Assembly: GCA_032718475.1 (NCBI GenBank)
Contig: JAUCBJ010007736.1
Location: 1 to 45,811 of the forward strand
Length of the DNA: 45,811 bases
Direction of reading: 5' to 3'
DNA from: Nemertoderma westbladi
Lineage: Eukaryota > Animalia > Xenacoelomorpha
The notes beneath the pieces are model-generated. The model worked only from the letters and a program-made list of their open reading frames with translations, was not told the DNA's origin and searched no databases. A program made the position numbers and the translations under genes. Positions 5,207 through 40,164 of this stretch are shown here, in pieces. Position 1 is the stretch's first letter, and each line of letters starts with the position of its first letter.

Positions 5207-5244
5207 AAATGCAGCTGCAATGCAGCATGCCGATCCTAGTAGTA

Positions 5245-11957: not shown

Positions 11958-12526
11958 ATGTCTTGAAACACGGCAAATCCAGCGCTACTCAGTTTCTCCG
12001 CAGCTGAGTCTCTAAGACTGAGCTTGGTCAGCGCGCGATCTTTGAACTGACTATCGACGTTACGGAACGGAGTCAGAAAGCGCCGGAAACATTCGAAACG
12101 TATGAACTTATTGTGTTCGTCTAACTTGGCGAGTTTAGTTCCAAGTATTAACGGATGAGCGCGTATGGTACGACTGCACACATCGGCTAGCCAACCGGCA
12201 AGTGCTGCGTTTTCAAAGATCGTGTATATAGCTAAGGAAGGGCGAAGTGGAACACTCATAAAGCTATATACGGCACCAGGCGCAGTTAATGGTCCATCAA
12301 AATATAAACGGGAGTAATGATCTCCATATACTTGCTGGTAATTTATAGGATTTCCAACTTTGAAATTCCAACCATATTCTTGAAAGGCAAGATGTCCGAT
12401 GGATGTCCGTTGTACTTTAGTAATGCCGCTGGGTGTATTGGCATACATAGTGCGAAAGAAACCTCGGCCTTCGGCCCAAGGAGCAATCAGCTGAGTATCA
12501 ACGAAAGGGTATGGAATGTTCTCCAT
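11753..12526 (-). CDS. Accessory ORF C, 257-aa protein of unknown function
   Basis: ATG-initiated long ORF with globular-like composition, inside element 1 and sense to gag-pol. No family recognised. Confidence 0.65.
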   Translation of the reverse strand: MENIPYPFVDTQLIAPWAEGRGFFRTMYANTPSGITKVQRTSIGHLAFQEYGWNFKVGNPINYQQVYGDHYSRLYFDGPLTAPGAVYSFMSVPLRPSLAIYTIFENAALAGWLADVCSRTIRAHPLILGTKLAKLDEHNKFIRFECFRRFLTPFRNVDSQFKDRALTKLSLRDSAAEKLSSAGFAVFQDICIQNSHSSVIQRPEYLQVILSWKYRQWVHLRKPTHQLRLCSWRMNQYAWNPKRFNLRLLGAVTMIMS

Positions 12527-12865
12527 ATTCTTGTTGTATGCCTAATATGTCTTCCATTGATGGTAGAGAGCAGGGGAAGACCTATGTCGTATTCAGAAGT
12601 ATTCCGAAATACGATCTCAGTAGGAGGATTGTTACATTCGAGGACTATTTCCAACTGAATTTATCCCCAGTGCGATGAGGTAAACACCAGTTCAAAGATA
12701 TGTTTGACTCAGTGGTTCTACATAAGATTTATATCCCCAATCATTAAGGGAGGTGAACAACTAGATTTATGACACATAATGGTACCAGTTGTTCACAAAC
12801 TATCCGCGTGTCCTTTCAGTCCTTATTTCACGGTTGTGGACTTGAGGAAATTAGGAAGTGGTTGA

Positions 12866-15405: not shown

Positions 15406-18400
15406 TTAAGTTGGGGAGTCCCTAGATGTCGGTTGGATTAGGGAAGTGGTCGTGGGAAGAGTTTCTTGCCTTCCATAGTTTACGGAGAGCTCTCTGTCTC
15501 TTTCCAGTAAACATAAACGACCCACTGGGCGATTGAGCTGTTGAGTCTCAAAGACTATCCCTGGTTTCTTAAAGTTCCGCCGCATGACGACGAGCTCTAC
15601 TGATCGCACCAAACCATCGCTCGAGATATAAGTCTCGATGATACGTCCTGTTTGCCATCGCTTACGTGGGAGATCGGGGTCCACAATAAGCACCATATCT
15701 CCAGCGCTGACGTTTTCTTGCTGCTCAAACCACTTAGTTCGAAGTTGTAGAGTGGGCAGGTAATGTTTCTCAAAATGGTCAGCGAAACGACGGGATAGCA
15801 ACTGCATAAGTTGCCAGGTTCGACGGCAGTACTCGTCTCCGTCTGTGATCTCCGATTGCGGGAGCATGGCTACGGGTTTCTTCAGTAGAAAGTGCGCGGG
15901 TGTTAGCGCTTCCAGGGAATCAGGATTTGAAGAGACTGGCATAAGCGGTCTTTCGTTGAGATAGGCGGCGATTTCCTCCATTAACGTCCGCAATAGTTCG
16001 TCGGTGAGATAAGCGCGACAAGGCACAATAAAGTGGAACGCAGTCTTCACGCTCCTAATCAATCTCTCCCAACTTCCTCCCCACCAAGGGGCGTCGGCGG
16101 CGTTGAAGGTCCAGCTAGACGCTGTTATCCTTAGCTGATCGTCCACCTGTCTTTTATTCCAGTCCTTTACGTAAGCTTGAATTTCGTTGTTGGCGCCAAT
16201 GAAGTTCGTTCCCTTATCCGATCTCATCGTGTTACTGGTTCCGAAGCGAGCGATCTGTCGTCGTAAACTCAACACGAAGCTGTTGGTGGATAGATCGTTT
16301 ACCATATCGAGATGGATAGCTCTACAAGTCATACAAACGAAGATGACACACCATCTCTTGACTATAGTCCGGGCACGATATACTTCAATAGGGCCAAATA
16401 AATCCACACCGGTATTAGTAAAGGGTGGTTCATAGAAGCTTACTCTTTCCCTAGGTAATTCTGCCTCTCGCTGTGTCAAAGGCCTACTGAATGCTTTCCT
16501 ACAGGGTATGCAGTTCCTAAGAACTTGGTTCAGAGCCCTACGGGGTTTATAAAAATAGTAGCGAGTTCGAATTTCGCTCAGAACTCGTTCTCTACCAGCA
16601 TGGTACAGTTTGCTATGAACATCTACAATCATCTTGATTTGTATATCAAGATTTCTAATGAGTATGGGAAACTTAGTGTCAAAGGATAATGGGGCGTTTG
16701 TTAATCTACCTCCAACACGTATTAACCCATCTATCATGGTACTAGAGAAGCGATCCCTTAAGCGCATCTGTGTATTTCTTAACAACAGGAAATACTTATC
16801 GGAATCCTCATAGCATTGTAGGAGTCTCAGCATTTGTTTGTTGGTTTCATCATGCTCCTGGTAACTGATCTTTTCTTTTAGAAACCTGTCGGGTATCTTG
16901 TATTTAGGAAGATCTTTAATAACATGGACTCGTGCAGATGTTGATGGAGCATCATCACTATGGGTCTTTGTCCCGGAGTAACGATGATGAAAACATCGTT
17001 TTAAATAGGTGACGGCTTTACAGAGCCGATTCCAGGAACTGTAGTGACGTATCGCTCTCTGCAAGAGAGGTGAGAGTCCTTGCGCGATATCTGGTATTCC
17101 AGATTTCCAATCCTTGTCACGGATTTCCAAGACTTCTTTGGTCGTGGCGGTGGGTTTCTGATCCAAAGCATCATCTCTGGAAGTAAATAATACAGATAGA
17201 TCAACCGCAGGTTTAAACAACTTCGATTTACTCGCTCGAGTTTTGGGTTTAACTTTCTCCGCTCCCTTGGCCTGTCTGATCTCTGCTGTTGTGAGATGAG
17301 GAGGCCATTCTTCTTCTTCCCTGTAGAGAAAGTCGGGTCCTCCTAACCATTCGGGAGTATTTACCAATTCCTTTGGAGTCGCTCCTCGGGACGCGATGTC
17401 TGCTGGATTAATCGTTCCTGGGCAATGTCTCCATTGGTCCATCGTCGTGCGACTAAGTATGATGGCTACCCTGTTGGTAACGAAGACGCTGAACTGACAG
17501 ACTTCATTGGTTATATACTCTAACACGAGTAAAGCGTCGGTCCAATAGACAGTTTTCTCTAATGTATAGTCAATCTGTTCGGTTACATTCCGGCCGATGG
17601 CTGTAGCGTATAGAGCCGCTTTTAACTCCGCTCGAGGAACTTTCAACTTGTTGTTGATTAATGCCTTAGAAGTAACCAAGGCGACTTTGATTCCATCCGG
17701 AGTTTCCACTCTTAGGTAGGCTACTATACCGATTCCCATATCGCTGGCGTCTCCAAACACATGGAGTTGATAGGAATACGTAGGGAGAACATGACCAAAA
17801 TATGAACGGGAAATTATAAAATCCTCGATCGCTGGCAGCGAATCTTCCCACTTCATCCACTGCTTCAGTAATTCCCCCTTAAGTGGATCGTCCCATGAGT
17901 GGTTTTCAAGCCACATTTGTTGTACCAAACTTCGAGCAATCAATATAACTGGGCTAATAAATCCCAATGGATCGAAATAAGTGCTCAGTATACTTAAGCA
18001 AATCCGTTTGGTTCGAACTGGATTATCTCGCTGTTTTAGTTGGAAAAACAGGATATCTCGCTCTGTGTCCCATTTCAAGCCGAGTGTCTTGGTCTCTGGC
18101 AGATCATCTTTGATCAAATCGAGATCTTTCGCTCCGCGATCTTCCGCAGGGATCGACTCCAGAAACTCACGGGAGTTGCTGGTGAATTTGGTTAATCGAA
18201 ATCCACCTCTTTTTAAGCACTCTACCGTTCCCTTAGCGACCTCAATGGCTTCCTCAACTGATGGGAGGGACTTCAGATTGTCGTCCATGTATATGTCTCT
18301 CTTGATGTTGTCGATCACTTCCTTAGAGAAGGCCTCTCTGTTGTCCTCTGCAGTAGTACGCACTACCGAACAGGCGTTGGAAGGGCTTGAGATTATCCCA

Positions 18401-21400
18401 AAGGCCTGGATGGTCATCCAGTACTCCACCGGTTTCTGGTTGAGGTCTCCTTCGGGCCACCATAGAAATCGTAAGCTATCTCGATTCCTATCCAACACTT
18501 TGACTTGCAAGAACATACCTTCTATATCGGAGGCGAAAGCAATCGAATATTGTCTCAATCTTAAAAGAATTCCCAACAAAGATTGAAGTAAGTTGGGTCC
18601 GGGTAACAATTCAGAGTTAAGGGATTGACCCATGTAAAGAGCGGAGCCATCAAACACTACTCTCACTTCATTGGGTTTACCGGGTTTAGGAACGTAATGG
18701 TGAGTTAAATAATACGTTCTTTCAGTCACAGGTGTTTCTTCCGGTACTCTCTCCGCGTATCCCTTATTGATAAATTTTTCTAGCTGTGTTTGATACATGG
18801 CTTTCGCTGAAGAATTAGCCGTAAGGCGTCGATGGAGTTGCGCGATTCCTTTTTCCGCCAAAGGTCTGTTATTGATGAACTTCGGTTCTTTCTTGCGGAA
18901 AGGTAAACCGACTTCATACCTACCTTGATCTTTGAGGAAACATGTAGTTGTCTCTTGGATCTGCTTGGCCCTTTCCTCTTCCACCGACAAGGCTTTATCG
19001 TAGGAATTGGGCTCTACCGCCTCTTGCGTAAAGAATCGTACAGCATGTTCATCCCGAATCTTGGCATTATGACGCTCAATGACGTCATTTAACTCGTCGT
19101 TATAAGCTTCTCGTTCAGATGGATAGAGAAGTTGACATAAGTTAACTTGATTTTGCCAAGCCTCGTTTTCCTTAAGGAGATCGATGGTATTCTCCTCATC
19201 AAAAAGCTGGTGAACATCGTCGTTATCTGAGGAGTATGGAATTCCCTCAGTTGAATCGTCTCCCTCACTAGCATCATCTTCCCATTCACTCACCTTGTAG
19301 ACTCTCTCTTGCGGTAGTCTTTCTCTGAGTGTTCTACGGGAAGGGCCAGTAAAGTACCAACCTACTCTAGTTCTTACCGCATAGGTCTGTAGGGGCTGCG
19401 GTTGAGCAGGCCGTTTCTCTAACGTCTCCAGCGCCTCATGCGCGTTTTGGCCGATGAGTATTTGCACTCCAGGATAATCAGTCTGAAATCGAGGTATGTT
19501 AAGATGTTGGATGCTCTCATCCTCGTCCCAATTATAAAGGTCTGCTTGAGTAGTAGCGAAGTTCTTTATAGCCACCATTTTCACTGACCTTATGCTGTGT
19601 TCTCCTAGTTCGTCCTGGGGGGTGGACAACGCTCCGACATAATAATCAGCTGTTATTGTAGATTTCCAAACTTGCATAATGCCTGACATGTTGAGCTTAG
19701 TTTGGAACTTGGGTTGTCCAGCAAATATATCTTCGGCTAACTCTTTATCGATGAATGTTCCTGTGCTGCCGGAGTCCAGGAGGGCGTTCACTACATAACT
19801 CCTCTTAGGTCCGTGAACCCTTACCTGCACCACAGGAAACTCTCGGATCCCTACATTGGAGGATGTCTCTTTCCAAGGTGGTTGTCGTTCAGAAGTAGTT
19901 AGAGTAAAGTCGTTCTCTGTATCTTTCTCATATGTTAGTGCTCGATACACTGCGGTATTTATCATGTAACAGGATTCGTTTTCGTCAGAGAACTCGTCTG
20001 TATAGAATCCTTCCATCTCAGATTGATCAGTGTCGTTCACATCACTGAATTGGACATGTAGCTCGGAATCACTTACCTGATTCGGACTATTTCGATCGAA
20101 TTCAGCGTGCAACAAGATATGATGTTTCGCACCACACTTTGCACACCTTATGTCAGAGAAACAGGTTCGCCGTTGGTGTCCTTGTCTGAGGCAATTATAA
20201 CATAACCGCTTATCCCACATGACTTCGCGTCTCTCCGTTAATGATTTCTTTAGAAATTCATCACACCTATTCAAATAGTGGGTCCCGTCACACAGCGCAC
20301 ATTTTGGTTTGATGTTACTTACCTTATTCTGAGTCACATTGTGTACACTTGCCTTTTCTTCGGGCTTTCTCACCTGAATTCTCTTGGGAGACGTGGGAGG
20401 AGTTTTTCTTACTTGTTCTCTCCTGTCATTTGTTCGAGACTTGAATTTACTTACCTGATCTTTAGGCATTTTATTCACGTAATAAGATCTATCCGTGTCC
20501 TTCCCGCTATCTTCTCCTTGTGAAGTCTGGCTTTCGCCGTCATCTGTATAACATACTGGGGTTATTTTTCTCCTAGAGACGGGTTTTTCACTTACCTTGT
20601 TTTCCGGTGTTTTCTCCCTAGACAGTTTCAGGAGCTGTAATTTCACTTCTCCATCTAGGAATGACATGAGATCAGCCATGGTAGGGTCTCGCCGTTGTTG
20701 TTCCATCATATATAACACTTTCTTATCCCAGCGTGTACCTACTCCACCTTTAGGTAAAGTAGAAGCCACTGCTCTAATAACCATAGTGTTCTGATACTCA
20801 TGAGACTTACCTAGCCAATCTAATTGTCTGCAGATCTCCTGGATCTCATCGGAAAACTCGATAATTCCGCTACTAATAAACTTTCGGGGCGCTACTAACT
20901 TGGCATACAAGTACCCAGCGATATTATTCCTATTACCATACCTGATGTTTAGTGTATCCCAAACTTGTCTTAATCCGTCTGGATGTCCAATAAACTTTAA
21001 CGCCATTAACTTGGGAGATCCTTCCAAGCACTCGATGAGGTATCTAAGTTTTTCTCCATTAGATAGTACAGAGTTCTGTATGTTATCTTTGTAATATTCA
21101 TTAAAAGGTAACCACTTCATCTCATCTCCATTGAACTTGACGATCTCTCCAACCTTTACCGCTTGCCGGGCTTCGGTTCTAGCCATTTGACGCGTAAAAC
21201 TTTCTTGGGCCATTGTGCTATTTAATATCGAGTTATCGGTATATAAATTCCTCGGATTATGATCAGTTCCATAGGGAATATCATTACAAACAGGTCTATA
21301 ATTACCCTTAATAGGGTTCACTATAGGAGTTTCTACTTCGCTAGCAGTATAAATGCGTGTAGGCTCCACACCTTGCGCATGAGATACTTCAGACCTAACG

Positions 21401-23520
21401 GGTTGACACATTGTTACAGGGGGTGGTGGTATACCCTTTTGTAAATTTACTAATTTATCGCGCTCTAGCGCGATATTTTGCTGCACTTCTTGCAACTCTA
21501 ACTTGCTTTCCCTCACTGTTCCCTTTAAATGTTGGACAGTCCCTTCCAACTCTCGGACCTGTTGGGAGGAGCGTATCCGATTCTCCTTCATCTCTCCGAG
21601 GAGAATATCCATCCCCCGCCGTCTCTCGTCTACCCAATCAACCGCCGAAACGGGATCCGCCAACGTCGTAGCGGGCGGATGAGGGACAACGGGCGACAAA
21701 TTATGAATAATTCGCTCGGGGTCCAGGACCTGAACTGTATCCGGGGCAGTTCTACGGGGCACAGGTAGCTTAGTGCTATGCAAAGGGAATTTAGAGGTAG
21801 TCTCAGGGAGCACAGGTATGTCTATCACCGAAGGGGTGATTTCAAGAACAGGCCTAATTATTTCAGGCTCATCTACTATAGTAGGAAGTCTTTCTATTTT
21901 AATTATTTGGTCTGTGGGTTCTGTACTACCTAAGTTGGTGTTATTTAGTTGCCTTCTAACAGCTGGAGGCAAATCAGGCAATTTCTGACGGTGGAATGTT
22001 CTTTTACGTCTACTTAGACGAGATCTATTTCCCTTGCCTTCAGTATCGGTGGTATCGCCTTCCTCAGATGATGTATATCCCTGTCTTTTGGGAGTAGATC
22101 GATTCATCATCTGCATATTACTAGCTGCTAACTGTTTATTTATGCAGTCTTGATTCTCCTGAATGTTTTCCAATTCTAATTGGGTGGTTTCGTCAGCCGC
22201 TTTCCTTTCTGCTTCTGCCACTTTTGCCTCTGCCGCTGCCTCTGCCACTGCCTCTGCCGCTTTTGCCTCTGCCGCTGCCTCTGCCGCTTTTGCCTTGGCC
22301 GCTGCCGCCTTTCTTTCTGCTTCTGCAGCTACTACTGCTGCTTTCTTTCTGTCTTCTATACGTTTTTTCTTTACTTGTTCTTCTTGGTCTCTAGCGATGC
22401 GGAGTTGTTCATCGAATTTAGCTTGGTTCGCCGCTAACCTATCCACATCAATTGCATCCAACACACGCTGGGCTCCTTCACTATTAGGGCTAAGCCCATC
22501 TAGTCTTCTCCGCAACTCTTCATCACCTACGAAACGCTGATAGTCTGACAGATAGATGTCAATGGCATCCCTCTTATGCGGTTTCTCTGCCGTCGCTTCA
22601 CTTTCCACTTGGGAAAAAGTAGCGTCTGTTGATTCTCCATGGGTTGATCGCTCCTCTAGCTGAGCTTTCCACTGAGCAGTTCCTCGAACCTGGAGATTCA
22701 CTCTTTGAAACCAAGTCTTTACGGCAACTTGCAACGACGTGTCTTGTCTTCTTTTAGAAGCCTCCTCAAAGGCGGATAAGATTAGCCTAATCCGCAGAAC
22801 TCTTTCTCTAACTTGATAAAGCAGCGATCCCTGCTCTTGAGGTCCTTGAGATTGTTGAAACAGTTGTCTCTCTACTCGCTCCATAGAGCTGAAGAATCCC
22901 TGTGCGTATCCGGCTGCGGACCTCTTCCATACAGCTGGATCGATGGTTTCCTTGGCTACTCCCATCCGGTGTATGTCTTCCCAGGCAGCTTCTGATAAAT
23001 CAAACGGGAGTCCGGGTCCGGGGAAGTTCCATTGCGACTCGACAATAGACTTCAGTTCTTCACTAGTGTATCCCGCGTAACTATCTCTAGTTGACCGTTG
23101 ACTTCTCGCCCAATCGATCTGGTGTTCTTCCACCGCGATCAATAACCCAGCGAGCACGGCTGCAGGAAGGATGAGAAGGGGATCCGTATAAACCGCATCC
23201 GTCATCTCTGCTCCGCTCTCGGGTGTCAGCTCTACAGTATCCTCACTACTGGAGCTGCTGGGCCGCTGAGGAATAAGTTCTTGACTAGTGGGTTGTTGCT
23301 GTTCCGCTGCCTTTTGGTCCCGCTTGACCTGAGCTCGAGTGCCTATGATAGACCTACGATGTTGGACCAGCCTAGGTTCTGTTATTACTACTGGAGGGAT
23401 GACCTTCCTCACAGTGGGAGGTGAACTGGATTTACGACCAGACGGTTGTACGTCTCTATCTGAGTCGCAGATAGTTACATCTAATAAACTGTCTGACAGG
23501 TTCTGCTTAGTATCAGACAT
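15406..23520 (-). CDS. gag-pol: BEL/Pao Gag-Pol polyprotein, 2704 aa, intact
   Basis: DUF1759-type FNGDEMKW; triple knuckle CALC/CYNC/CAKC..HHILLH; protease ALLDSGS; RT RVVFDGS, GPNLL, SDIEGMFLQV, YMDD; RNase H LHVFGDAS, PRAEL, WTDA; integrase HHCC, GVDLFGP, SDKGTNF, WERLIRSVK; DUF5641-type tail. Confidence 0.97.
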   Translation of the reverse strand: MSDTKQNLSDSLLDVTICDSDRDVQPSGRKSSSPPTVRKVIPPVVITEPRLVQHRRSIIGTRAQVKRDQKAAEQQQPTSQELIPQRPSSSSSEDTVELTPESGAEMTDAVYTDPLLILPAAVLAGLLIAVEEHQIDWARSQRSTRDSYAGYTSEELKSIVESQWNFPGPGLPFDLSEAAWEDIHRMGVAKETIDPAVWKRSAAGYAQGFFSSMERVERQLFQQSQGPQEQGSLLYQVRERVLRIRLILSAFEEASKRRQDTSLQVAVKTWFQRVNLQVRGTAQWKAQLEERSTHGESTDATFSQVESEATAEKPHKRDAIDIYLSDYQRFVGDEELRRRLDGLSPNSEGAQRVLDAIDVDRLAANQAKFDEQLRIARDQEEQVKKKRIEDRKKAAVVAAEAERKAAAAKAKAAEAAAEAKAAEAVAEAAAEAKVAEAERKAADETTQLELENIQENQDCINKQLAASNMQMMNRSTPKRQGYTSSEEGDTTDTEGKGNRSRLSRRKRTFHRQKLPDLPPAVRRQLNNTNLGSTEPTDQIIKIERLPTIVDEPEIIRPVLEITPSVIDIPVLPETTSKFPLHSTKLPVPRRTAPDTVQVLDPERIIHNLSPVVPHPPATTLADPVSAVDWVDERRRGMDILLGEMKENRIRSSQQVRELEGTVQHLKGTVRESKLELQEVQQNIALERDKLVNLQKGIPPPPVTMCQPVRSEVSHAQGVEPTRIYTASEVETPIVNPIKGNYRPVCNDIPYGTDHNPRNLYTDNSILNSTMAQESFTRQMARTEARQAVKVGEIVKFNGDEMKWLPFNEYYKDNIQNSVLSNGEKLRYLIECLEGSPKLMALKFIGHPDGLRQVWDTLNIRYGNRNNIAGYLYAKLVAPRKFISSGIIEFSDEIQEICRQLDWLGKSHEYQNTMVIRAVASTLPKGGVGTRWDKKVLYMMEQQRRDPTMADLMSFLDGEVKLQLLKLSREKTPENKVSEKPVSRRKITPVCYTDDGESQTSQGEDSGKDTDRSYYVNKMPKDQVSKFKSRTNDRREQVRKTPPTSPKRIQVRKPEEKASVHNVTQNKVSNIKPKCALCDGTHYLNRCDEFLKKSLTERREVMWDKRLCYNCLRQGHQRRTCFSDIRCAKCGAKHHILLHAEFDRNSPNQVSDSELHVQFSDVNDTDQSEMEGFYTDEFSDENESCYMINTAVYRALTYEKDTENDFTLTTSERQPPWKETSSNVGIREFPVVQVRVHGPKRSYVVNALLDSGSTGTFIDKELAEDIFAGQPKFQTKLNMSGIMQVWKSTITADYYVGALSTPQDELGEHSIRSVKMVAIKNFATTQADLYNWDEDESIQHLNIPRFQTDYPGVQILIGQNAHEALETLEKRPAQPQPLQTYAVRTRVGWYFTGPSRRTLRERLPQERVYKVSEWEDDASEGDDSTEGIPYSSDNDDVHQLFDEENTIDLLKENEAWQNQVNLCQLLYPSEREAYNDELNDVIERHNAKIRDEHAVRFFTQEAVEPNSYDKALSVEEERAKQIQETTTCFLKDQGRYEVGLPFRKKEPKFINNRPLAEKGIAQLHRRLTANSSAKAMYQTQLEKFINKGYAERVPEETPVTERTYYLTHHYVPKPGKPNEVRVVFDGSALYMGQSLNSELLPGPNLLQSLLGILLRLRQYSIAFASDIEGMFLQVKVLDRNRDSLRFLWWPEGDLNQKPVEYWMTIQAFGIISSPSNACSVVRTTAEDNREAFSKEVIDNIKRDIYMDDNLKSLPSVEEAIEVAKGTVECLKRGGFRLTKFTSNSREFLESIPAEDRGAKDLDLIKDDLPETKTLGLKWDTERDILFFQLKQRDNPVRTKRICLSILSTYFDPLGFISPVILIARSLVQQMWLENHSWDDPLKGELLKQWMKWEDSLPAIEDFIISRSYFGHVLPTYSYQLHVFGDASDMGIGIVAYLRVETPDGIKVALVTSKALINNKLKVPRAELKAALYATAIGRNVTEQIDYTLEKTVYWTDALLVLEYITNEVCQFSVFVTNRVAIILSRTTMDQWRHCPGTINPADIASRGATPKELVNTPEWLGGPDFLYREEEEWPPHLTTAEIRQAKGAEKVKPKTRASKSKLFKPAVDLSVLFTSRDDALDQKPTATTKEVLEIRDKDWKSGIPDIAQGLSPLLQRAIRHYSSWNRLCKAVTYLKRCFHHRYSGTKTHSDDAPSTSARVHVIKDLPKYKIPDRFLKEKISYQEHDETNKQMLRLLQCYEDSDKYFLLLRNTQMRLRDRFSSTMIDGLIRVGGRLTNAPLSFDTKFPILIRNLDIQIKMIVDVHSKLYHAGRERVLSEIRTRYYFYKPRRALNQVLRNCIPCRKAFSRPLTQREAELPRERVSFYEPPFTNTGVDLFGPIEVYRARTIVKRWCVIFVCMTCRAIHLDMVNDLSTNSFVLSLRRQIARFGTSNTMRSDKGTNFIGANNEIQAYVKDWNKRQVDDQLRITASSWTFNAADAPWWGGSWERLIRSVKTAFHFIVPCRAYLTDELLRTLMEEIAAYLNERPLMPVSSNPDSLEALTPAHFLLKKPVAMLPQSEITDGDEYCRRTWQLMQLLSRRFADHFEKHYLPTLQLRTKWFEQQENVSAGDMVLIVDPDLPRKRWQTGRIIETYISSDGLVRSVELVVMRRNFKKPGIVFETQQLNRPVGRLCLLERDRELSVNYGRQETLPTTTSLIQPTSRDSPT

Positions 23521-24846
23521 GACTAGGTATGTACAGTTGAATGCCTACTGCTATATTACAGTCTAAGCAAGTCTAGTAACTCAGTATGAACTGCTAGCCT
23601 AGTAATTAATTACCGTTACTGCTACTCAGTGTAGCGTGATATATATATAATATATTAGAATACCGGTATACTTATAGTATATATAACTATATAAGTATTA
23701 TTACAGACTAGGTTTATCACAGAATACCGGTATAATTTTAGCACAAATATATATAAATATATAATAGGCCTATCGGAATACCGGTATACAGCTTACAGTT
23801 TGTAGTATATATAATTCTGGAATAGAATTAATTACAAGTACCGGTATAATTTCAGCCTAGATTTATAGAAATAAGATAATAGGCCTATCGTAAATACCGG
23901 TATATCAATTATTTTAGAATAATTGAATTTCTGAACTTTAGGGTTACTTGGTTACTTTAACTTACTTTATTACCGTTATTTAAGCAGTAATCCAACTGAT
24001 ATTGAGACCTAATGGTTTTATGGTAGGCCTACTATTTATAAATCGTTAGATTTGATTTATAATATATATACCCGTTTTAATGGGTTTTGTCGATGTTTGA
24101 AATAAATGTTATTATTTCTGGGGAGTAATCACTACACAAAGCGGTGCGCTTTCAGTGAAGTGTTACTTATAGGACACTAAAACAAATAATACTAATTTAC
24201 CTAAGTTACTTAATACTACAAATTACGTACGATTCGGGTTGAGATTACAATCTCTAAATAAACACAAAAATTTACAAAAAACACAAATACGAATTTTTAG
24301 GGTAATTTTACAAGAAGTCTACAAACCAGCCTAACAAAGGGTTAGAAAACTGGTTATTACAACGGACAGGGTACTACGGTATTTGAAATAATAAGTAGTA
24401 GTAAATACACTGCGTTGTCCAGATAGAAAAATACCACCGCCTGACGACCTATAGCCGTATCGCTATAGGTTCTACGTTATGTATCACGGAGTGTTCCTAC
24501 CTAGAAGTTAATAGAGCTAATCGAATGTGCCTATCAACCACTTTACAACACAAATATAATGCCTACCCTAATTATTCTCGGAAAGCACTGTACACTAAAC
24601 CCTAAATTAGGTACGAGTACTTGTACAACAGATAATCAGTAATTAAATATACTTGAACAGCTAAAAGAACCACGGCATCTGCTGGAGTGACCGATGCACA
24701 AAATCACCAGTCTTTACCTACGCCGAGCAGCCCGTGTAGTACCGGGGTTAATTTAACTATAGCGGTATGTATAACAAACACAATTACTGTAGGAACAAAC
24801 TTGGGGAATGAATGTTGCGGATAATCGCATAAACTCTGAATAATAA

Positions 24847-25410
24847 ATATTACGCTACGCGTACAAACCACTCAAACAAAATACAGACCGAACACTGACA
24901 GACTACTATCAAGCCTAAACAAACTACGGTATATGCAGACTCCGAAATGATTAGGGAGTATGCGCTCTAACCCAGTAGTGCGACTTATTCTTTAGTTGGG
25001 GGTTTACCTTACAGCGTTCGCTGCCCCTACTGCCTAACCGTACTTAATCGGACAGATGATCTACACACGCGGCAATCCGTTCAGACCTAATAACAGCCAG
25101 ACAACTATCCAGCCTACAAATTATCTAAGTAAAATTATACGCTACCCGTACAGACTTACACAAACAAAGTACAGACTAAACGATGGCAGACTACTCTCAA
25201 GCCTAAATAAACTACAGGACATGCAGACTCCGAAATGATTAGGGAGTATGCGCTCTAACCCAGTAGTGCGACTTATTCTTTAGTTGGGGGTTTACCTTAC
25301 AGCGTTCGCTGCCCCTACTTCCTAACCGTACTTAATCGGACAGGTGATCTACACACACTGCAACTCGTTCGGACTTAACAGCAATCAGACAACAGCTCAG
25401 CCTACAAATC
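24847..25410. repeat. 288-bp tandem duplication in the 2.2-kb 5' leader of element 1
   Basis: GCAGACTCCGAAATG at 24935 and 25223, with a near-identical core of about 130 bp. Confidence 0.9.
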
Positions 25411-25682
25411 GTCTGTACAATCTGATCAGGCTTACACGCCTTCTGTTCAATACTGGCCTACAAACAAATAAAACTTGACAGAAATAAGTAAAAATCTCAA
25501 TAAAAAACCAGGGCTGCAGTCCCTGATGAATTATTAAGGCCTACTGGTATATAATAATCAAAATCGAATAATACTGCTGTACCTGTACTGCTGTAGGTAC
25601 CGGTCCGGGTGGTTAGGTAGTCAGGCCTACTGGGTACCGGTTGCCGGTACTTCAGCTTTATTGCCTACTGCAATACAGAAGC

Positions 25683-25692
25683 TATCCTTTAA
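25683..25692 (-). other. Non-tRNA primer-binding site (putative self-priming PBS) of element 1
   Basis: Sense TTAAAGGATA abuts the LTR end and is the exact complement of sense TATCCTTTAA at 26470-26461. No TGG start. Confidence 0.75.
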
Positions 25693-26911
25693 TGTTCGCA
25701 CTTTCAGACCTTTGGCAGTTTAACCCGCCAAATTAAGATGTCTTCTAGATATTAAATCGCTTTTTAGCCTATGACAAGTATTTGATTCACTACACTAGTC
25801 GAAACCAATCCGTGCGCGACCATTCACCCGCTGGATATTCCCGGGAGATTGGGTTCGACGGTTTAATTTTATTGCTATGTAAGCTTAATGTATTATTCGA
25901 CTGACAGTATTATATAATCTCTGACAATATTATTTATCTTCGGGAATATTAACAGTTCCTTTAGGACGTGGCGCTTTATCTATATAAACAGAGTTATGAC
26001 TTAAACTACTCACAACGATATGGCTTAATTATAATTCACATATATGGCGCATTCTTTAGGAATGCTTCTTTAACAGACTCACTCGCACACAATGCTGCAC
26101 AATACTGCACACTAATCTGCCAATCTTCACTGATTTTAGTCACATATAAAAGGAACACAGGCTGACTCATGTAGGGTCTATCAAATAACATTAGATTCAC
26201 TTCAAACCACTTTAACATAAGTCACAATCGTTATTGGTAACCTTTCTCTCTTACCTTCGGTATATCAAGAATATTGGGTGTCGGGGTTATTTCTCGTTAT
26301 TCCAATATAATAATTCATCAACAAATATAATGAATAACCGACAACAAATAGCAGTATACAATATTGATTGAGCAGGTAATTTTAGCAGTTTCAGCAGTTA
26401 TTAAAAGCAGTGTGGCAGCAGTTGCTGTCGCCAGGTCAGTTTTGTTTGATCATCAGTCAGTTAAAGGATATATGTCCTTATAATTAAACCTCCTAGTGTT
26501 GAGCTAAAAAGCAGAAAGCATAAAACACTACAAAGCCGTTCTTTCGTGGCTTTGAAAAACTCGTGACTACTGCTCTATACGAGGATACCAACTCCCTTAT
26601 TCCACGAAGCTCCCGTTCAACACAGAGAAAGAGCAGTGAGATAGGAAATTTTCAGTTCAGTACTCTGTGATAGGTCAAAATCAAGGCTAACTCAAATTCT
26701 ATTGGGAGATACAACACAAGGCTATGACGCAACCTCCCTAGGCTTGTTGGCCGATTAAACAGAGCCCAGATGCCTGCGTATAGCAAATCAGCCAATAAGC
26801 TGGTAACTTGCACTATTTTTAGTTATAGATCACCTCGAGAGTATTCTTAGCGACTGGGGGGGAACTGGCCAACAAGGCAAACTAATCAGTTATCCCACAA
26901 AAGCTTTTACA
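25693..26911 (-). repeat. 5' LTR of element 1 (1219 bp)
   Basis: Direct repeat of 9472-10673, upstream of gag-pol. Confidence 0.95.
26461..26470 (-). promoter_or_regulatory. Predicted transcript 5' end / self-primer sequence (also at 10223-10232 in the 3' LTR)
   Basis: Complementary to the PBS position. Inferred by analogy to Tf1; the TSS is not observed directly. Confidence 0.55.
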
Positions 26912-27847
26912 CTATTATTGGTACATATTATAATTTTGCACATCAACCCATATAGTGTCATTTTCTGATGACACGGACCACCACCCCCTCCCCTCCCACC
27001 CAAATTTTTCTACAAATCATTATCATGGGGTAGGGTGGGGTTATTAACGCAAATCCCATCTACGCGAATTCACGATATTATGCTAATTATCAATTTAGAT
27101 TAGAGAAATGAGCAGTTGAAATGGTAGGTATGATATGCTAACCAAAACAATAAACGAAATACAATAGAACAGGTTTCAGTTTTATCTTTGGGAGTGATCA
27201 GCTGTTATTTGCATCGTTCTCTTGGAAAGAAATTAATTATTATTCCTTTGAGTGCTGTCTTCACTGAATGAGTTTATGTTCACGATAATGTACTGTAGGC
27301 CTACTAGAAGTTGTAACCTTATGAATTATGATATCTATAGTATTTGTGATCTATTTTCTATCTATGAATCTATTTTAATCTTAAATGATTCGCGATCTTC
27401 CTTAATATACTAACTATACCTTTTAATGTCTCCTATACTACCGCAATATATATATTATTAATTTATATTACCCTTATGCCATATATTGTTCTTATATTTT
27501 AATCAGTGCATGACCATTTTATGTTTTGATTAACTGAATAATAGCCACTGGGGCGTAAGCCGGGACCGAAATTGTAATTAATCAATGACTATTATATTAT
27601 TTATTTGTTCAACATTTACACAATATTACATTTATTATCTTTATTTATAATATATTTATCATTTATTATATTACATTTACATATATTACATTACATATTA
27701 CATTTTACTATTATACTCTTTTTTTCAACCGAATTATTTTTCAAAACTAAAACCAATATCTGTATAATTGATGGTAGATGTACTGTATTTTGTTTAATTT
27801 TTATTCTATCCACATTAAGTTTATTGGGACCCGTAAATGAATTACAT

Positions 27848-29263
27848 CTAATAATCATAATCAGAATCAGTCAACGATTCATAAGAATCATAAGGCGAAT
27901 AATTTTCGTTATGAGTTTCTATTGGATCCTCAGTCGAATCGTCGCTGAAATGTTGCAACTTTCCGCAACGCCTCAAGAATAGTTGGGCTAATTGACGAAC
28001 CTGGAACGGGTCGATAGTGCCATTACAGTTGATAGAGAAGCTTTGTATTCCGTCCAGATTCCCCCAATCAAATATATTCTCAAGATCCACCAATGTCTCG
28101 TCTTCTAACGAGATATAATTGTCAGTATAATTGAGTAGGACCCTCAGCTCGGTGAGTGAGGACAGAATTCGTAGGGCCGATGTTAGAGATAGATAATCGC
28201 AGTAGGTTATATGGAGAACCGTAATTGAATCAATCTTTTGCATTTCCAAATCCGTATCTTCTACCTTACAGCGGTTTAACCACAACGTCTTTAGCTTTGG
28301 AAACAATCGCGAGAAATGCGGCAAAGAAACGGGATTGTCGCATCCGTGGAACTCAAAATACGTGACTGCGGGTAAATTAACCGCGCGGTTTACAGCTCGC
28401 GAGATTAGCTCAGGAAATTCCGGAATCCGCCAGCAGAAAAGGGTCAATGAGTTTAAGGAAGGAAAGTCTGAAAGTACGTCGAATAGTTCCCGTTCGGAGT
28501 ACAACTCAATGGTTGACGCGTTGAACCATTCCAATACCAGAGTCTGAAGGGAAGTCCGGCAGTTGGGGTTGAGAAAGTCGTTGACGCTCTTTGTGATGGA
28601 CATCAGAGGGGCGGAATAATCTAAGATGTGACCGAATCGACGGTTGTAAAGAATAAAATTCGCAAAATTAAAATCGAGTTGACTCGATTTGTTTCTGCGC
28701 TGTTTAATTATTTCGTGAAGTAATTCCATTGTGTTATGATAAATAATAGTGACTCGAGGGATCAGTTGGTGTAGGTTTATTATATCTTGAACTGATATAT
28801 TGTGACATTCAGACACGTCTAACGTCTGTAATCGTTTCAGTTGCGTCACTAACTGAAGACCATTGTCAGTCAGGTCAGAATTTTTCGCGATTAGCGCTAC
28901 CAGATTTTCGCAACTCCCAACTACACAGCCAATCAAAACATCGTTTAATCCTTTACACTTCAAAGTAGTTAGATTAGGAAATGTACTATCTGTGGTAAAA
29001 ACCGTCGCAAGGATGCTGGCATCGCAGAACCACCATATTTCGAGGATGTCCAATGTAACCAGTACAGATGAAATGCAGGGCAACCATGTGATTAGTATAG
29101 GAACTACATCTCTAGGGAAGTCTTCAATAAATGTTCGATCTACAACAATTTCTATAGGAGATAGACATTGCTTTACGAAAACATCTTTATATGTTTCCAC
29201 AACGTCAGTGAGTGTTTTATTCCATTGTTGAATGTTGAGATTTTCAGGTGGGAAAGTTTGTTT
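27848..29263 (-). CDS. RNI-like / F-box-LRR-type leucine-rich repeat protein, main exon (5' end unresolved, may be a pseudogene)
   Basis: About 470 open codons. Repeats such as FPNLTTLKC, CENLVAL, LTDNGL, LKRLQTLDVSEC and FPKLKTLWLNRC. Acidic C-terminus. Confidence 0.75.
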   Translation of the reverse strand, partial: KQTFPPENLNIQQWNKTLTDVVETYKDVFVKQCLSPIEIVVDRTFIEDFPRDVVPILITWLPCISSVLVTLDILEIWWFCDASILATVFTTDSTFPNLTTLKCKGLNDVLIGCVVGSCENLVALIAKNSDLTDNGLQLVTQLKRLQTLDVSECHNISVQDIINLHQLIPRVTIIYHNTMELLHEIIKQRRNKSSQLDFNFANFILYNRRFGHILDYSAPLMSITKSVNDFLNPNCRTSLQTLVLEWFNASTIELYSERELFDVLSDFPSLNSLTLFCWRIPEFPELISRAVNRAVNLPAVTYFEFHGCDNPVSLPHFSRLFPKLKTLWLNRCKVEDTDLEMQKIDSITVLHITYCDYLSLTSALRILSSLTELRVLLNYTDNYISLEDETLVDLENIFDWGNLDGIQSFSINCNGTIDPFQVRQLAQLFLRRCGKLQHFSDDSTEDPIETHNENYSPYDSYESLTDSDYDY

Positions 29264-31682: not shown

Positions 31683-31750
31683 GTGATTGTTGTCGATAAT
31701 CGATTACCACATGACGTAGCAAAACACTCATTTTATAGCCAACAACTATT

Positions 31751-32346
31751 ACCAATTGATGGAAAGGAGCAGGTTAAGGTCGGATTTTCTAACCAAAACA
31801 ATAAACAGTCACTTTACCAAATGAAGGAAAGGAGCAGGTTACAGAGGCTAGCCTTTCTCACCAAAACAATAAACGGTCACTTTACCAAATCATGGAAAGG
31901 AGCAGGTTACAGAGGCGGGATTTTCTAACCAAAACAATAAACAATCACTTTACCAAATGAAGGAAAGGAGCAGGTTACATAGATGGTCTTTTCTAACCAA
32001 AACAATAAACGATAACATTAATAATTGAGAGAAAGGAACAGGTTACAGAGGCGGGATTTCCTAACCAAAACAATAAACGATCACTTAACTGATTGAGGGA
32101 AAGGAGCAGGTTTACAGAGGCGAGATTTTCTAACCATAACAATAAACAATCACTTAACTAATTGAGGGAAAGGGGCAGGTTACAGAGGCGGGATTTTCTA
32201 ACCAAAACAATAAACAGTCACTTTACAAAATGAAGGAAAGGAGCAGGTTACAGAGGCGGGCCTTTCTAACCAAAACAATAAACGGTCAGTTTACCAAATC
32301 AGGGAAAGGAGCAGGTTACAGAGGCGGGATTTTCTAACCAAAACAA
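31751..32346. repeat. 68-bp minisatellite x9
   Basis: GGAAAGGAGCAGGTTACAGAGGCGGGATTTTCTAACCAAAACAATAAAC at about 31761, 31826, 31894, 31962, 32030, 32098, 32167, 32235 and 32303. Confidence 0.92.
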
Positions 32347-33254
32347 CCGGTCAGCCGTACCGTAGGCCTACCATTACCGTATTTATATGGTAGGCTACAC
32401 AATAGGCCTACAGCAGTACCGGTGCCGGAACCGGTACTAAAATACATGCTTTATACCTACATCTGTACATACAATACAGCAATACTGCAAAATAGTGCTC
32501 TATATACTAATACCGGTACTGATAGCCTGAGAGAACAGCAGTAGAGAAACCGGTAGCATGGAACCTAGCGGTAAATTTCTGGAGGACATAAAAATTCAAA
32601 AAAAAACTAATACCGGTACTGACGTGTGTTGTGTACACTCTACCGGTACTGTACAGCACACACACCCACATAAGACACAATAGGCCCATAGTCAGAGGTG
32701 GTGGCCAGTCTGGCTGTGGGTGCTTAGTCAGTCTGTGTATTCTACTTGCTGTCGTGTCATTACAGTAGGCTTACCTGCTTACAGTACTGCAGTACCGTGT
32801 ACCTTGATTAAGTGCAGCAAAAATAAATAGCAGGGTTTACCAAGATATTGTTTTGAATTTCCCGCCTTAGGTTTATAGTAATATAGTTGATTAAATCCAA
32901 GGCACTAGAGATGCAAAGATGCACCTTTTTTTATAATTAAGGATAGCTTTTACTTATTATTTATTACGTTTATATTTTAGGTTATATTAAAAAATACCGA
33001 ACATGAAAAATATCGCGATTAAAATTATCGTGAGTTAAAATATTGCGAATGAAATAATCTATAATTTTTGGATTGAAACTTTAGCTTCCAACGAAAACAG
33101 TAATTTACTAAAAAAAAATAAATTTTTTTAGGCCTATCTATAGTTTTTTGTAAAAACACTTGATCTATGAATTAAAACGCTAGGTAACTAGTAGGGCCTA
33201 CCATAGAAACTAAAATAAACAAATATTAAAAAAAGATAAAAATTTTTATAGCTT

Positions 33255-33981
33255 TAAATTAATAAGTAATTAAACAGGACTAAGGATGATCCAACTCTAT
33301 AGCAAATGGAGCGGAAAAAATGAATTCGCCACCAGCGGGGATTGAACCCGCTTCTCCCGATAAACGTTCAGGTATGCTAACCACTACACCACGGAGGCTC
33401 CTGCATCTTTCCGATTGATTTGCTATAGGTGGTAAGCTACCTTATGGTTGATATTGAATACAGTCCTCCTTACGGATGGATTTAATCTGTATTCTAATAC
33501 AGTAGCAGTTATGACCTGTACTGCAAACGAATATGTTATTGTATATGTGTTTAACATCCATAGATTGTATAAATTAATAAGTAATTAAACAGGACTAAGG
33601 ATGATCCAACTCTTATAGCAAATGGAGCGGAAAAAATGAATTCGCCACCAGCGGGGTTTGAACCCGCTTCTCCCGATAAACGTTCAGGTATGCTAACCAC
33701 TACACCACGGAGGCTCCTGCATCTTTCCGATTGATTTGCTATAGGTGGTAAGCTACCTTACGGTTGCTATTGAATACAGTCCTCCTTACGGATGGATTTA
33801 ATCTGTATTCTAATACAGTAGCAGTTATGACCTGTACTGCAAGTTACAGGTCATAACTGCTACTATATTAGAATACAGGAGCCTCCGTGGTGTAGTGGTT
33901 AGCATACCTGAACGTTTATCGGGAGACGCGGGTTCAATCCCCGCTGGTGGCGAATTCATTTTTCCGCTCCATTTGCTATAG
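33255..33981. mobile_element. tRNA-derived SINE-like repeat: two tandem units (about 315-bp period, minus) plus one inverted, internally deleted unit (plus)
   Basis: tRNA-like heads at 33327-33398 (-), 33643-33714 (-) and 33881-33952 (+), each with A box GTGGTGTAGTGG and B box GGTTCAA(T/A)CC. Confidence 0.8.
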
Positions 33982-36149: not shown

Positions 36150-36900
36150 CTCTCACTCAAACTCACTCTAACTCCACTTCAGCTCCACTCTAACTCCACT
36201 CTACTCTATCTAACTTCACTCTGCTCCCTTTAACTCCACTCTGAATTCCACTCGTCTACATTCTCACCCGCCAACACCTCCTCTCCATACTTCTCTCGGG
36301 ACTGCTCTCATACTCCTCTGTTCTCTACCACTCCCAAAGGTGCTAAATTTCTTATGCTACTATACTGTGCTATCATTCTATCTACCTTGCTACTTACTTC
36401 TTACTTACTGCTTACTATGTAACTCTCTTACTACTAATTCTAACTTACTTCTTACTTACTACTTACTATGTAACTCTCTTACTACTAACTCTATTAACTC
36501 TACTAACTTTCCAACTCTCTACTAACTCTCTAACTCTACTAACTCTCCAACTCTACTTACTCCCTAACCCTCTAACTCTCTAACTACGTGGTGCTTTCGG
36601 TGCCCACAACCCCTCTACTCTCTTTCTACGTGGCGCTTTCGGTGCCCACAACCCCTCTGCTACTACTCGTGGTATGTCAATATACCAAACTCCCTATACC
36701 TGCCTACTTCTAACTCTCCTCTTACTCTTACTAACTTCGACTAACTTTCTTACTACTACTTCTTACTAACTTCTACTAACTTTCTTACTTCTACTTACAA
36801 TCTAACTTCTACTAACTTTCTTACTTACTTACTATCTAACTTCTACTAACTATTACTTTCTAACTTTCTACTTATTTTATTATTTTGTTATTTTATTATT
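36150..36900. repeat. Strand-biased CTAACT/TTACT low-complexity tandem repeats 3' of the element 3 ORF
   Basis: G-depleted plus strand with multiple short duplications, e.g. CTACGTGG.GCTTTCGGTGCCCACAACCCCTCT x2. Confidence 0.8.
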
Positions 36901-38547
36901 TTATTATTTTTATTATATTTGTGTAGGAAGGGCGTCTTGCCCTCATTCCCACCCCCCTCAGTCCAACATTTGGACGACTAAACTCTAAGGTGCCCCTTCT
37001 ATTAGGCAGCACTTTCCTACAGCCCTCCTGTAGGTCTTCCTCTCCTTTGCTCCCATCTTGCCTCCTATTCTCACCCCCACCGACTGGACTCTTCCGTCCT
37101 CGTCGGGGTATGTATCTACCACTCTCGCTAGCCTCCTCCACCACCCTAAAATCCGGTCTTTCCGCCGCCTTCTTGACTTCCTCATCTCCTGGCAGCAAAA
37201 TGCCACCCCCCACCTTGTCGTCTCCCGGTGGCAGAATGAAAAGAAACCGAAAGAACAGACAAAACAGAATGGACAATAGTAATCCTATCCCTTTCCACCC
37301 TGTCTTCTTGTTTGACCTTCCCCTTCTCGGTATGCCTCTCAACCGGACTGGCGTCTCCTCCGGACACTCCTCCGGACACTCCTCCGGGCACTCCTCCGGA
37401 CATCTCGCCATCCACTCTTCCCCATCCTCATACCGATAGTTGCTGGGAACATCCTTGTTCCATCCCATCGTCTCTAAGTCTTCCGCGTCGAATCCATTCT
37501 CCTCCGCCCACTCTCTTGCTGTTGCTTCCCCTCCTAACTGATCTACTGATGGTAGTTTCCTGGAACTATCCTCTATCTTTTCAACATGCCCCACTATGCG
37601 TGGTTCCAGATCTATACACAACTCCTGGTATCTTCCCCCGGGCCGCTTCTCACATGGGCCCTCCCCATCGCCCGTCTCTGGTTTCTTCTCTACGTCCTCA
37701 ACGGTGCCTGGTAGCATGCACCCTGATGTCTCCGACACCCTGGATGGAACCTTGGTTTTAATTGGGCCGCTAAGCGTCCATCCAAACGGCGTGAGAATCG
37801 CCGTCGGATCCCGCTGCTTATTCTCTCCAAAGACTGTTCTTACTCTCTCGTGGGCCATCGGGCAAACCATTCCCACTATGATGGATACCTTCCTGACGTC
37901 CACCTCCGGTATCGAGAAATCGATGTCATCTAGGAATCTATACTGCTCGACCTCGATGTTAGTTGGTCGCCTGGCGTTTATATTGATCGATTCTATAATC
38001 TGTATGGGGTTGATGGTCGCCCCATAGTCACATCCTGGTGCTATTGCTGATATCTTGCACCGTCCCATCCTCATCTCCAGGACCTCATCTTTACTCGAGA
38101 TAGTAGTTACCGCCATCCTACTTGGCCTCGTCTGTAACCCTATCTCCTCGGCCACCCAGTTCTCCACCAGCGTGAAGCCTGCTCCGCTGTCGACCAGCAT
38201 CAATGTTGTGACTGATCGGCCGCCCCTTCCTGTTATCTTCACTGGTACTACCCCGAGTAGTACTTTCCTCTTTCTTCTTGCCCCTGTCGTGCTCGTAGCT
38301 ATTGTTTGGCCTCCAATCTCATCGTCTCCTATCGCTGTTTCTCTACACTCTCCGAGTCTGTGTCCTTCTACCACACAACGATGACATAGTCCGTTTGCGT
38401 CTGCATAGGCTACACGATCTTGTTTAGGCAACGCTTGCCAATGCTTACAACTCATGGTCTTATGGGTTTCATCCCTATGTAATTGACATTCGAATCCTGG
38501 ATTGTAGCGTTCCCTGTAAAGTCCTTCATGTATCGCGCGTAGGTTTA
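36896..38547 (-). mobile_element. Element 3: BEL/Pao-like gag-protease ORF lacking RT/RH/IN core, cut at its 5' side by element 2
   Basis: The frame is open from the junction: CQLH...H...C and CHRC...GH...C knuckles, LVDSGA protease, AILTPFGWTLSGP. An integrase C-terminal (DUF5641-type) motif, LARVVDTYPDEDGRVQSV...RRAVGKCCLIE, lies in another frame (36985-37206). Confidence 0.8.
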
Positions 38548-39796
38548 TGTAAAAGCTTCTGTGGGATATAACTGGCCCTTTTGCTTCGCAATCCAGTTTC
38601 CCCCCTAGGCGCTGGAATACTCTAAAAGGCTCTATAACTATATATATATTCCCCTCGCCCGCAAGGTACCGTTATAGGTGTTTTAACGGACATAAAAGTC
38701 ATTCTGCTATATACGTGTTTTGGCGGACATGGTAAGGCAAAAAACCTGCAATGCACCAAATACCTTTACACAGCTTAGCCTTGATGATTCAGATTACGAC
38801 ATCTAACAGCTGGTTGGTGGTTGCTGACATGGGAACAGCCATTGGACGCATGGTTCTTTGTTTAGCTTAAGCCAATCAGAGCGATTTTTTCTGTCAATGT
38901 GGAGATATTCGGCCGATCATACTAGGAGTGTTCAGTCTTACTGTTTTTTGTGATACTTTGTGTTGTTTGTATCTAGGCCAGGAACACCGGCTCTAGAGTC
39001 AACTCGTTTTTCATACTTTAGAAGAAACATTAGTAGGCTTAAATTATAGAGCGTATAACTGTTATCGGTCCATATCAGCCCAGTTCATATCATAACTTAA
39101 CATACCGTCTTAATGCTGTTTACTGTTGTGTTTTGGTTGAATATTATTTGGAGAACATATATAAAGAACCCAAATTTCCCAATTTTCTTGATACACTACA
39201 GGTTAGAGAGACGGGTTATATACAGCGATTGCGACTTATATTATTGTGGTTTGTAGTGAATTTAATGCTATTTGATAAGCACTACATGAATCCGTTGCTG
39301 TTTTCTTTATATATGATAAAATTCATTGACGGTCGGCAAATTAGTGAGCAGTATTGTGTGTTACCGGTAGCGTGCATGATTGTGACTGATAACTAAGCAT
39401 TTCCTAAAGAATGCGCCTCATACGTGAATCATAAGCCTTACCGACTTACCGTTGTGATTAGTATAAGTCATATCTCTGTTTACTTAGATAGAGCGCCACG
39501 TCCTAAAGGAACTGTTAATATTTCCCGAAAGTGAATAATATTGGTCAGAAATTATTTATTAACGATCAATCGAATAATACAATACAGTAAGCTTACACTG
39601 CAATAATAATCTAAGCCCTCAGAATCCAGTCTCCCGGGTATATCCAGCGGGTGAATGGACGCGCACTAGGCTGGCTTCTGCTAATGTTGTGTTTATTGGT
39701 ATTAAATATTTGTCATCTTCTAAAGTCTATTTATAAACCAAAAGACATATAAATTTTGGCAGGTTAAACTGCTAAAGGTCTTCAAAAGCGCGTACA
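38548..39796 (+). repeat. 5' LTR of element 2 (about 1249 bp)
   Basis: Starts TGTAAAAGCTTCTGTGGGATA and ends AAAGCGCGTACA, matching the element 1 LTR termini. The 3' ~700 bp align with element 1. Confidence 0.85.
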
Positions 39797-39807
39797 ATAA
39801 CAGTTAT
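39797..39807 (+). other. Non-tRNA primer-binding site (putative self-priming PBS) of element 2
   Basis: ATAACAGTTAT abuts the LTR end and is the exact complement of ATAACTGTTAT at 39055-39065. Confidence 0.75.
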
Positions 39808-39862
39808 TGACTTTATTGCAGTAAGCAATAAAGTTGAAAGTACCGGTCAACCGGTAAACCTG

Positions 39863-39988
39863 AACCGGTACTTCTGTAGGTCAGTAGGCCCAACTGCCAG
39901 AACCGGTACTGCTGTAGGTCCGTAGGTCCAACTGTCAGAACCGGTACTTCTGTAGGTCCGTAGGCCCAACTGTCCTAACCGGTACTTC
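39863..39988 (+). repeat. 38-bp tandem repeat x3.3 in the element 2 leader
   Basis: AACCGGTACT.CTGTAGGTC.GTAGG.CCAACTG at 39863, 39901, 39939 and, partially, 39977. Confidence 0.88.
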
Positions 39989-40164
39989 CCGTATAAGTAC
40001 ATTAGTATTATTCGATTTTGATTATTGTATACCGGTAGGTCTCGATATTAAATCGGGGACGCCTGGTTTTTATTGGGATTTTACTTAGGTCTATTTCTGT
40101 CAGTTTTATTTCCTAGTAAGTTAATATTGAGCTGAAGACGTGTAAGTCTGCTCAGATTGTTCAG

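Follow-up and report, generated by a model that had tools for sequence, protein, structure and literature searches.

Self-priming, in which minus-strand DNA is started from the RNA of the element itself, is demonstrated for Tf1; for related Ty3/gypsy elements and one Ty1/copia lineage it is a prediction (PMC6317226). The Tf1 mechanism is covered in PMC7175516, PMC4600332, PMC5341516 and PMC10085805, and the primer duplex is given as 11 nt in PMC7175516. Tf1 and Tf2 of Schizosaccharomyces pombe and the wider Tf1/sushi group (Tj1, Tosmo, Tcn1) are Ty3/gypsy chromoviruses that carry a 10-12 nt LTR stretch perfectly complementary to a primer binding site (PBS) directly following the terminal CA, a U5 stem beside the PBS and an element-encoded RNase H. 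A 10-bp rule was used to predict self-priming in Tcn1 and in the copia TAR lineage of plants (PMC6317226). The TAR lineage (Houba, Osr-1), which belongs to the plant Pseudoviridae and has another Pol order, stands at the same level of evidence as the elements described below, with at least 10 bp between PBS and 5' LTR and no tRNA match. Fungal GalEa copia elements have no tRNA PBS and a hairpin, the 'Conserved Hairpin Site', beside the LTR end (PMC5445492), and bivalve TRIMs are described as PBS-less in PMC6934838.

The replication of the Belpaoviridae (Semotivirus) is poorly understood and host tRNA priming is assumed, the ICTV description giving an 18-nt PBS for tRNA-Arg or tRNA-Gly and genomes of 4.2-10 kb (PMC8742986). 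The Sinbad paper (PMC554778) and a BEL/Pao survey (PMC3118150) returned no match for PBS, primer binding, tRNA or priming, and the accessible portions of PMC13524379, PMC8220671 and PMC9873768 contain nothing on self-priming in BEL/Pao. No report of it was found in the literature to the extent that this was open; subscription papers, Repbase reports and supplements may bear on the point.

The window analysed here is a stretch of 45,811 nt from Nemertoderma westbladi (positions 1-45,811 of contig JAUCBJ010007736.1, assembly GCA_032718475.1), and contains two related LTR elements arranged head to head. Element 1 (26911-9472, minus strand) is 17.4 kb long, with a 5' LTR of 1219 nt (25693-26911, minus strand; TG...CA) and a 3' LTR of 1202 nt (9472-10673, minus strand) that differ by 19 mismatches and 19 gap columns. 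A short and imperfect purine-rich tract lies immediately before the 3' LTR, and no target-site duplication was seen around the element. The gag-pol gene is a single uninterrupted frame (15406-23544, minus strand; 2712 aa from stop to stop) containing DUF1759, zinc knuckles, a protease, a reverse transcriptase (RT) YMDD motif, a Peptidase_A17 region, an integrase with a zinc finger domain and DUF5641, and the four acidic motifs of RNase H are present within the Peptidase_A17 region. The roles of the protease, YMDD, RNase H and integrase motifs are those usually assigned to such motifs. Element 2 (plus strand, from 38548) is truncated by the end of the window and its 3' end lies outside. It has a 5' LTR of 1249 nt (38548-39796, plus strand; TG...CA) and the start of gag-pol (41988-45811, plus strand), which is cut by the window end and disrupted near 42132, where there is an in-frame stop, and near 44880, where the frame changes. 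The two elements share ~80% nucleotide identity internally, over 6 kb, and 74-78% amino-acid identity. Their leaders are ~2.1 kb (23545-25682, minus strand; 39808-41987, plus strand) and both include a 288-nt duplication. Short repeats surround an ACCGGT palindrome just 3' of the PBS and are possible dimerisation or packaging signals.

Both elements belong to BEL/Pao, as had been proposed from the sequence: PF03564, PF05380, PF17921 and PF18701 were found in this order in Pfam searches, and the motif order in element 1 (protease, YMDD RT, RNase H, integrase) is PR-RT-RH-IN. Element 1 also has the LTR organisation of the superfamily, with an LTR at each end, TG...CA termini and a purine tract. 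A protein search gave 642 matches among 7977 scored candidates, the best with only 44% identity. The best homologues listed (38-44% identity) carry PF05380 and mostly also PF03564, PF17921 and PF18701; named sources among the 120 matches listed are echinoderms, cnidarians, mussels, a ribbon worm and a fish, and no clade-labelled reference (Sinbad, Suzu, Tas or others) is among the protein matches listed. Pfam gave no match to a chromodomain, which together with a Ty3/gypsy Pol characterizes the Tf1/sushi chromoviruses. A single gag-pol frame, the PR-RT-RH-IN order, BEL-type domains and TG...CA LTRs of ~1.2 kb are shared with the Belpaoviridae (PMC8742986), and element 1 differs from the ICTV description in having no tRNA-type PBS, in its length and in carrying additional 3' frames. 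Its 17.4 kb exceed the ICTV range because of two extra frames and ~2.9 kb without long frames. The two frames (262 and 410 aa; 10752-12541, minus strand) are located between pol and the 3' LTR and have no Pfam match; the 410-aa frame contains Cys/His knuckle-like motifs, and Atlas leads to CCHC proteins all scored below 0.9.

The original prediction held that neither element has a TGG-starting tRNA PBS, that the bases following each 5' LTR are the perfect complement of a site within the same LTR, and that pairing halts exactly at the terminal CA. These features were found in both elements. TGG does not occur in the first 60 nt past either LTR, nor in the 10 nt that end each 5' LTR, and an ICTV-type PBS (18 nt, tRNA-Arg or tRNA-Gly 3' end) is therefore absent from this interval. 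The 10-nt PBS of element 1 (25683-25692, minus strand) and the 11-nt PBS of element 2 (39797-39807, plus strand) lie directly 3' of the terminal CA and are exact reverse complements of candidate self-primers of 10 nt at 26461-26470 (minus strand) and 11 nt at 39055-39065 (plus strand), respectively. Pairing ends at the LTR boundary, where the last A of the LTR is opposite a C. Each site is present once per LTR, and elsewhere in the window only the PBS itself matches; in element 1 the site is identical in the 5' and 3' LTRs, the second copy being at 10232-10223. The distance to the LTR end had been put at 730-770 nt, which is correct for the ends of the sites, but from their starts the range is 742-778 nt, with 778 nt in element 1 (761 nt in its 3' LTR) and 742 nt in element 2. 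The PBS of element 2 is an imperfect palindrome, such that its site is also a 10/11 direct repeat of the PBS; that of element 1 is not palindromic. The arrangement in both elements, with a PBS that adjoins the LTR end and is perfectly complementary to its own 5' LTR, is that of Tf1-type elements, and the length and position of the duplex agree with the 11 nt of Tf1 and with the 10-bp criterion. Own-LTR pairing of the PBS departs from the tRNA-priming rule described for BEL/Pao, though it does not exclude the elements from that group, because BEL/Pao membership is assigned by Pol relationship.

The self-complementary, co-varying PBS of these BEL/Pao elements is real and is not due to chance. 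Dinucleotide shuffles of the LTR equalled the observed pairing length in 7 of 3000 cases for 10 nt and 3 of 3000 for 11 nt, and perfect complements in the own LTR were found for 27 of 15010 10-mers and 5 of 6005 11-mers taken from internal sequence. Counting pairs from the LTR end, the first 10 include 4 in which both partners have changed and none that is broken, and crossed combinations of PBS and LTR between the elements pair over only 5-6 nt. The co-variation between the two copies that had been predicted is thus borne out, for two PBS types and one length variant.

The length variant was detected in contigs from four runs, which were compared with positions 25500-27000 (element 1) at 80% likeness; only contigs were compared. 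The element 1 stretch is present whole or in part in 7 of 8 listed runs, none of which is on record as RNA, and the family looks abundant. With a 2-nt insertion behind 25682, present in one contig of run X1 (~3% of local depth) and two contigs of X3 (~7%), the pairing reaches 12 nt (26472-26461), and one loose end in X5 fits this insertion. The spacing from ATTATA to the start of the site then becomes 6 nt, the value found in element 2; the insertion could also be plain dinucleotide slippage. Contigs of three runs break at 26458-26462 in at least five cases (two at 26462 in X3, two at 26458 in X4 and one at 26459 in X5), and the breaking contigs match element 1 across the upstream context and at least most of the site before diverging, the two X3 breaks stopping one base before the 3' end of the site. 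In X1 and X3 the two bins that follow the site have a summed depth ~sevenfold below that of the bin preceding it, and depth is far higher over the last 600 nt of the LTR, these depths being sums over contigs that are read qualitatively. Contig changes are those given among the matches listed, and as a further 102 substitutions, 38 indels and 429 loose ends lie beyond these, the absence of listed changes in the site or PBS is no evidence of conservation. Two features of X5, a contig that ends at 26470 and the missing intron-like joint, were discounted, since contigs cannot show RNA ends and the status of X5 as RNA was a guess. Searches of metagenome and viral contigs with a 21-nt conserved U5 motif gave 0 loci, and those with the RT region gave 0 confirmed relatives, 28 and 9 candidates having failed.

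A common context upstream of both sites, also part of the original prediction, proved to be genuine though modest. It comprises a T-rich tract, TTTAG, a TAG.AGG motif and TATAA in element 1 (26479-26510, minus strand), and TTTAG, the TAG.AGG motif and ATTATA in element 2 (39016-39048, plus strand). The best match falls directly upstream of site 2, but shuffles equalled the score 10 and 19 times in 500, and the two sites were not brought together when the LTRs were aligned globally with MAFFT. TTTAG is exactly 33 nt from the site in both elements, and ATTATA is 8 nt from it in element 1 and 6 nt in element 2. In a motif scan, neither site had a TATA-type motif at 25-35 nt upstream; LTR promoters lacking TATA are on record (PMC3601003). 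TATAA is located 12 nt upstream of the site in the 5' LTR of element 1, where element 2 has TATAG and the 3' LTR has TACAA. Read as a TATA box, it would imply a start 3' of the site, a position incompatible with a Tf1-like model; alternatively, it could mark an RNA 3' end. An insertion at 26477 converts TATAA to TATAAA in part of the family, and 26492 has the letter found in element 2 in nearly all contig depth. A further TATAA, which both elements have at LTR position 85-86, was rejected as a promoter, as most contig depth differs at 26823 and 26825 and RNA from LTR position 115 forms no duplex between site and PBS (probability 0.0). AATAAA occurs late in the LTR in element 1 only.

Folding favours the site as the RNA 5' end, though the promoter motifs do not confirm it. 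In local folds of the U5 end and leader alone, the PBS is predicted to be single-stranded in both elements, flanked by a U5 stem and a leader hairpin (z -4.33, 0 of 200 shuffles; z -2.47, 1 of 200 shuffles). The predicted U5 domain of element 1 (25696-25819, minus strand) is closed by a 6-bp stem that ends 3 nt before the PBS and has a predicted inner hairpin of 8 bp (25732-25711, minus strand), and a predicted leader hairpin (25654-25683, minus strand) abuts the PBS on its other side. In element 2, the same 6-bp stem, changed on both sides at one pair, closes the predicted U5 domain (39659-39793, plus strand), which likewise has a predicted inner hairpin (39755-39776, plus strand), while the predicted leader hairpin (39807-39837, plus strand) has 13 bp and again abuts the PBS. 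Of 56 pairs in the consensus fold, 3 change on both sides, including one in the U5 closing stem, which for two sequences is weak support. For RNA beginning at the site, mean pair probability of the duplex is 0.77 and 0.85, and this falls with extra 5' nucleotides, to ~0.5 at 10 nt and to 0.03 or less at 20 or more, a support that is partly circular because any perfect terminal complement is favoured. In the long RNA from LTR position 115 the flanking stems are likely in element 2 (0.64 and 1.0) and have low probability in element 1 (0.11 for U5 and 0.18 for the leader hairpin).

These data are best explained by priming from the RNA of the element. That the primer derives from this RNA by one route or another is likely, and Tf1-like self-priming via the RNA 5' end is the route that we favour with moderate confidence. 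The complementarity, the geometry, the co-variation and the missing tRNA PBS are all as first proposed for a Tf1-like system. Of the three-duplex Tf1 pretzel, the central duplex and the U5 stem are predicted here, and pairing between leader and LTR, the third arm, does not exceed what shuffled sequence gives (36 of 60 and 9 of 60). The open PBS between stems, the dependence on the 5' end, the 12-nt variant and the intact RNase H residues point the same way as self-priming. Transcription would start at the site, near 26470-26472 in element 1 and at 39055 in element 2, and the RNA 5' end would fold back over a loop of 740-780 nt onto the open PBS. The RNase H of the element would then cut the RNA 3' of the site, after nt 10-12, and the freed 10-12 nt piece would prime minus-strand DNA from the last base of the LTR, with a poly(A) site presumably further down the LTR. 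These predictions are exact to the base, the family seems abundant and one copy has an uninterrupted coding region, and self-priming is thus directly testable.

In retroviruses, the PBS is normally copied anew from the primer during plus-strand synthesis. If the same happened here, the sequence and length of the PBS would follow the primer, giving the co-variation and the 10- and 12-nt variants. The strong-stop junction would fall right after the site, which would explain both the variable stretch directly 3' of it (26279-26460, minus strand; 182 nt in element 1 and 112 nt in element 2, with ~44% aligned identity between them) and the 18-nt indel within this stretch that separates the two LTRs of element 1. 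With PBS re-copying and a junction at this position, both patterns would arise without special selection.

The elements probably work like Tf1 and are not members of the Tf1/sushi lineage. In Tf1 the position of the 5' end and the cleavage have been demonstrated, whereas here both are predicted from sequence; 3' of the PBS a local hairpin is predicted here in place of a pairing with the LTR, and the loop is 740-780 nt. GalEa differs further, as its authors report no LTR complement to the site (PMC5445492), whereas here a complement exists and co-varies; the palindrome at the GalEa LTR end described there has a counterpart in element 2 only. A broader reading, which we put forward tentatively and at somewhat under an even chance, is that primer and PBS drift together freely, so that each subfamily would have a private primer code, and that tRNA-free priming would have originated here independently of Tf1 on another scaffold, with the PBS between a U5 domain and a leader hairpin and a 750-nt loop, and perhaps by a primer route other than that of Tf1 (an RNA 3' end, or splice exposure). 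Self-priming in BEL/Pao, if true, would add a third superfamily, and would then be present in all three LTR superfamilies. It would also inform whether self-priming is ancestral or has repeatedly evolved, and account for elements annotated without a PBS.

Four other readings were weighed against own-RNA 5' priming. It is unlikely that a host small RNA, a tRNA half or another, is the primer and that the duplex between site and PBS is regulatory, hiding the PBS or acting as a switch for translation or packaging. The Belpaoviridae are tRNA-primed according to the ICTV (PMC8742986), and half-tRNA priming occurs in Ty1/copia lineages (PMC6317226). Set against this are the lack of TGG and the need for each of two PBSs in close relatives to have its own host RNA as well as a matching LTR site. 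From the PBS start, just 2-4 nt can pair with the three tRNA-Asn genes of the window. Cer7 of C. elegans is said to encode its own tRNA-like primer; in both LTRs and leaders of the present elements, Rfam searches found no match, whether ribozyme or tRNA-like RNA.

It is quite unlikely that the primer is a 3' end of the element's RNA, formed with the AT-rich hexamer as a 3'-processing signal and annealing without RNase H cleavage. TATAA(A) does lie 15-21 nt before the 3' end of the site with the T-rich tract ahead of it, but neither element 2 nor the 3' LTR of element 1 retains the hexamer, a poly(A) tail would need to be removed and the PBS of element 2 starts with A. In addition, a fragment ending at the site and including 100 nt upstream co-folds at 0.0-0.01, compared with 0.60-0.90 for the free primer. 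Very unlikely is a start further upstream, with the primer exposed by splicing or trans-splicing at TTTAG or by an internal cut. The T-rich tract, the 33-nt spacing of TTTAG kept in both elements and a conserved donor-like AG/GT(A/T)AG further down both LTRs would suit this, but the site is contiguous with no splice needed, and 33 extra nucleotides abolish the predicted duplex. Finally, a chance match or a one-off functionless inverted duplication, for which the near-palindromic PBS of element 2 and the AT-rich LTRs (38% GC) might speak, is scarcely credible given joint shuffle odds of 7/3000 x 3/3000, about 2e-6 before similar position or context is counted, and retention of the site in both LTRs and in family contigs among the matches listed.

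The 3' half of the LTR (25693-26280, minus strand; 39178-39796, plus strand) is 76% conserved between the elements, compared with 44-45% in the middle, which suggests a large structured RNA domain. The donor-like sequence (26256-26250, minus strand; 39200-39206, plus strand) opens these conserved last 600 nt, and splicing from it past the PBS would yield an mRNA with the primer and without the PBS. The T-rich tract and AG upstream and the donor-like site downstream may leave room for a role of splicing.

Several further features were found in the window. A 591-aa frame (36896-38671, minus strand) with a match to gag-type aspartyl protease runs off the start of the element 2 LTR, and is probably another retroelement interrupted by element 2. 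A 471-aa frame with weak leucine-rich-repeat matches (27848-29263, minus strand) is located between the two elements. The three tRNA-Asn(GTT) genes are at 33327-33952, and two of them lie within a duplication of ~270 nt that is 99% identical, with one inverted. Tandem arrays consist of 163-nt units (505-1284), 14-nt AT-rich units (5244-6579), 30-nt units (7356-7938) and 68-nt units (31703-32414, with a lone copy at 2382). The array of 30-nt units forms a large inverted repeat, or long hairpin, with sub-threshold matches to miRNA models.
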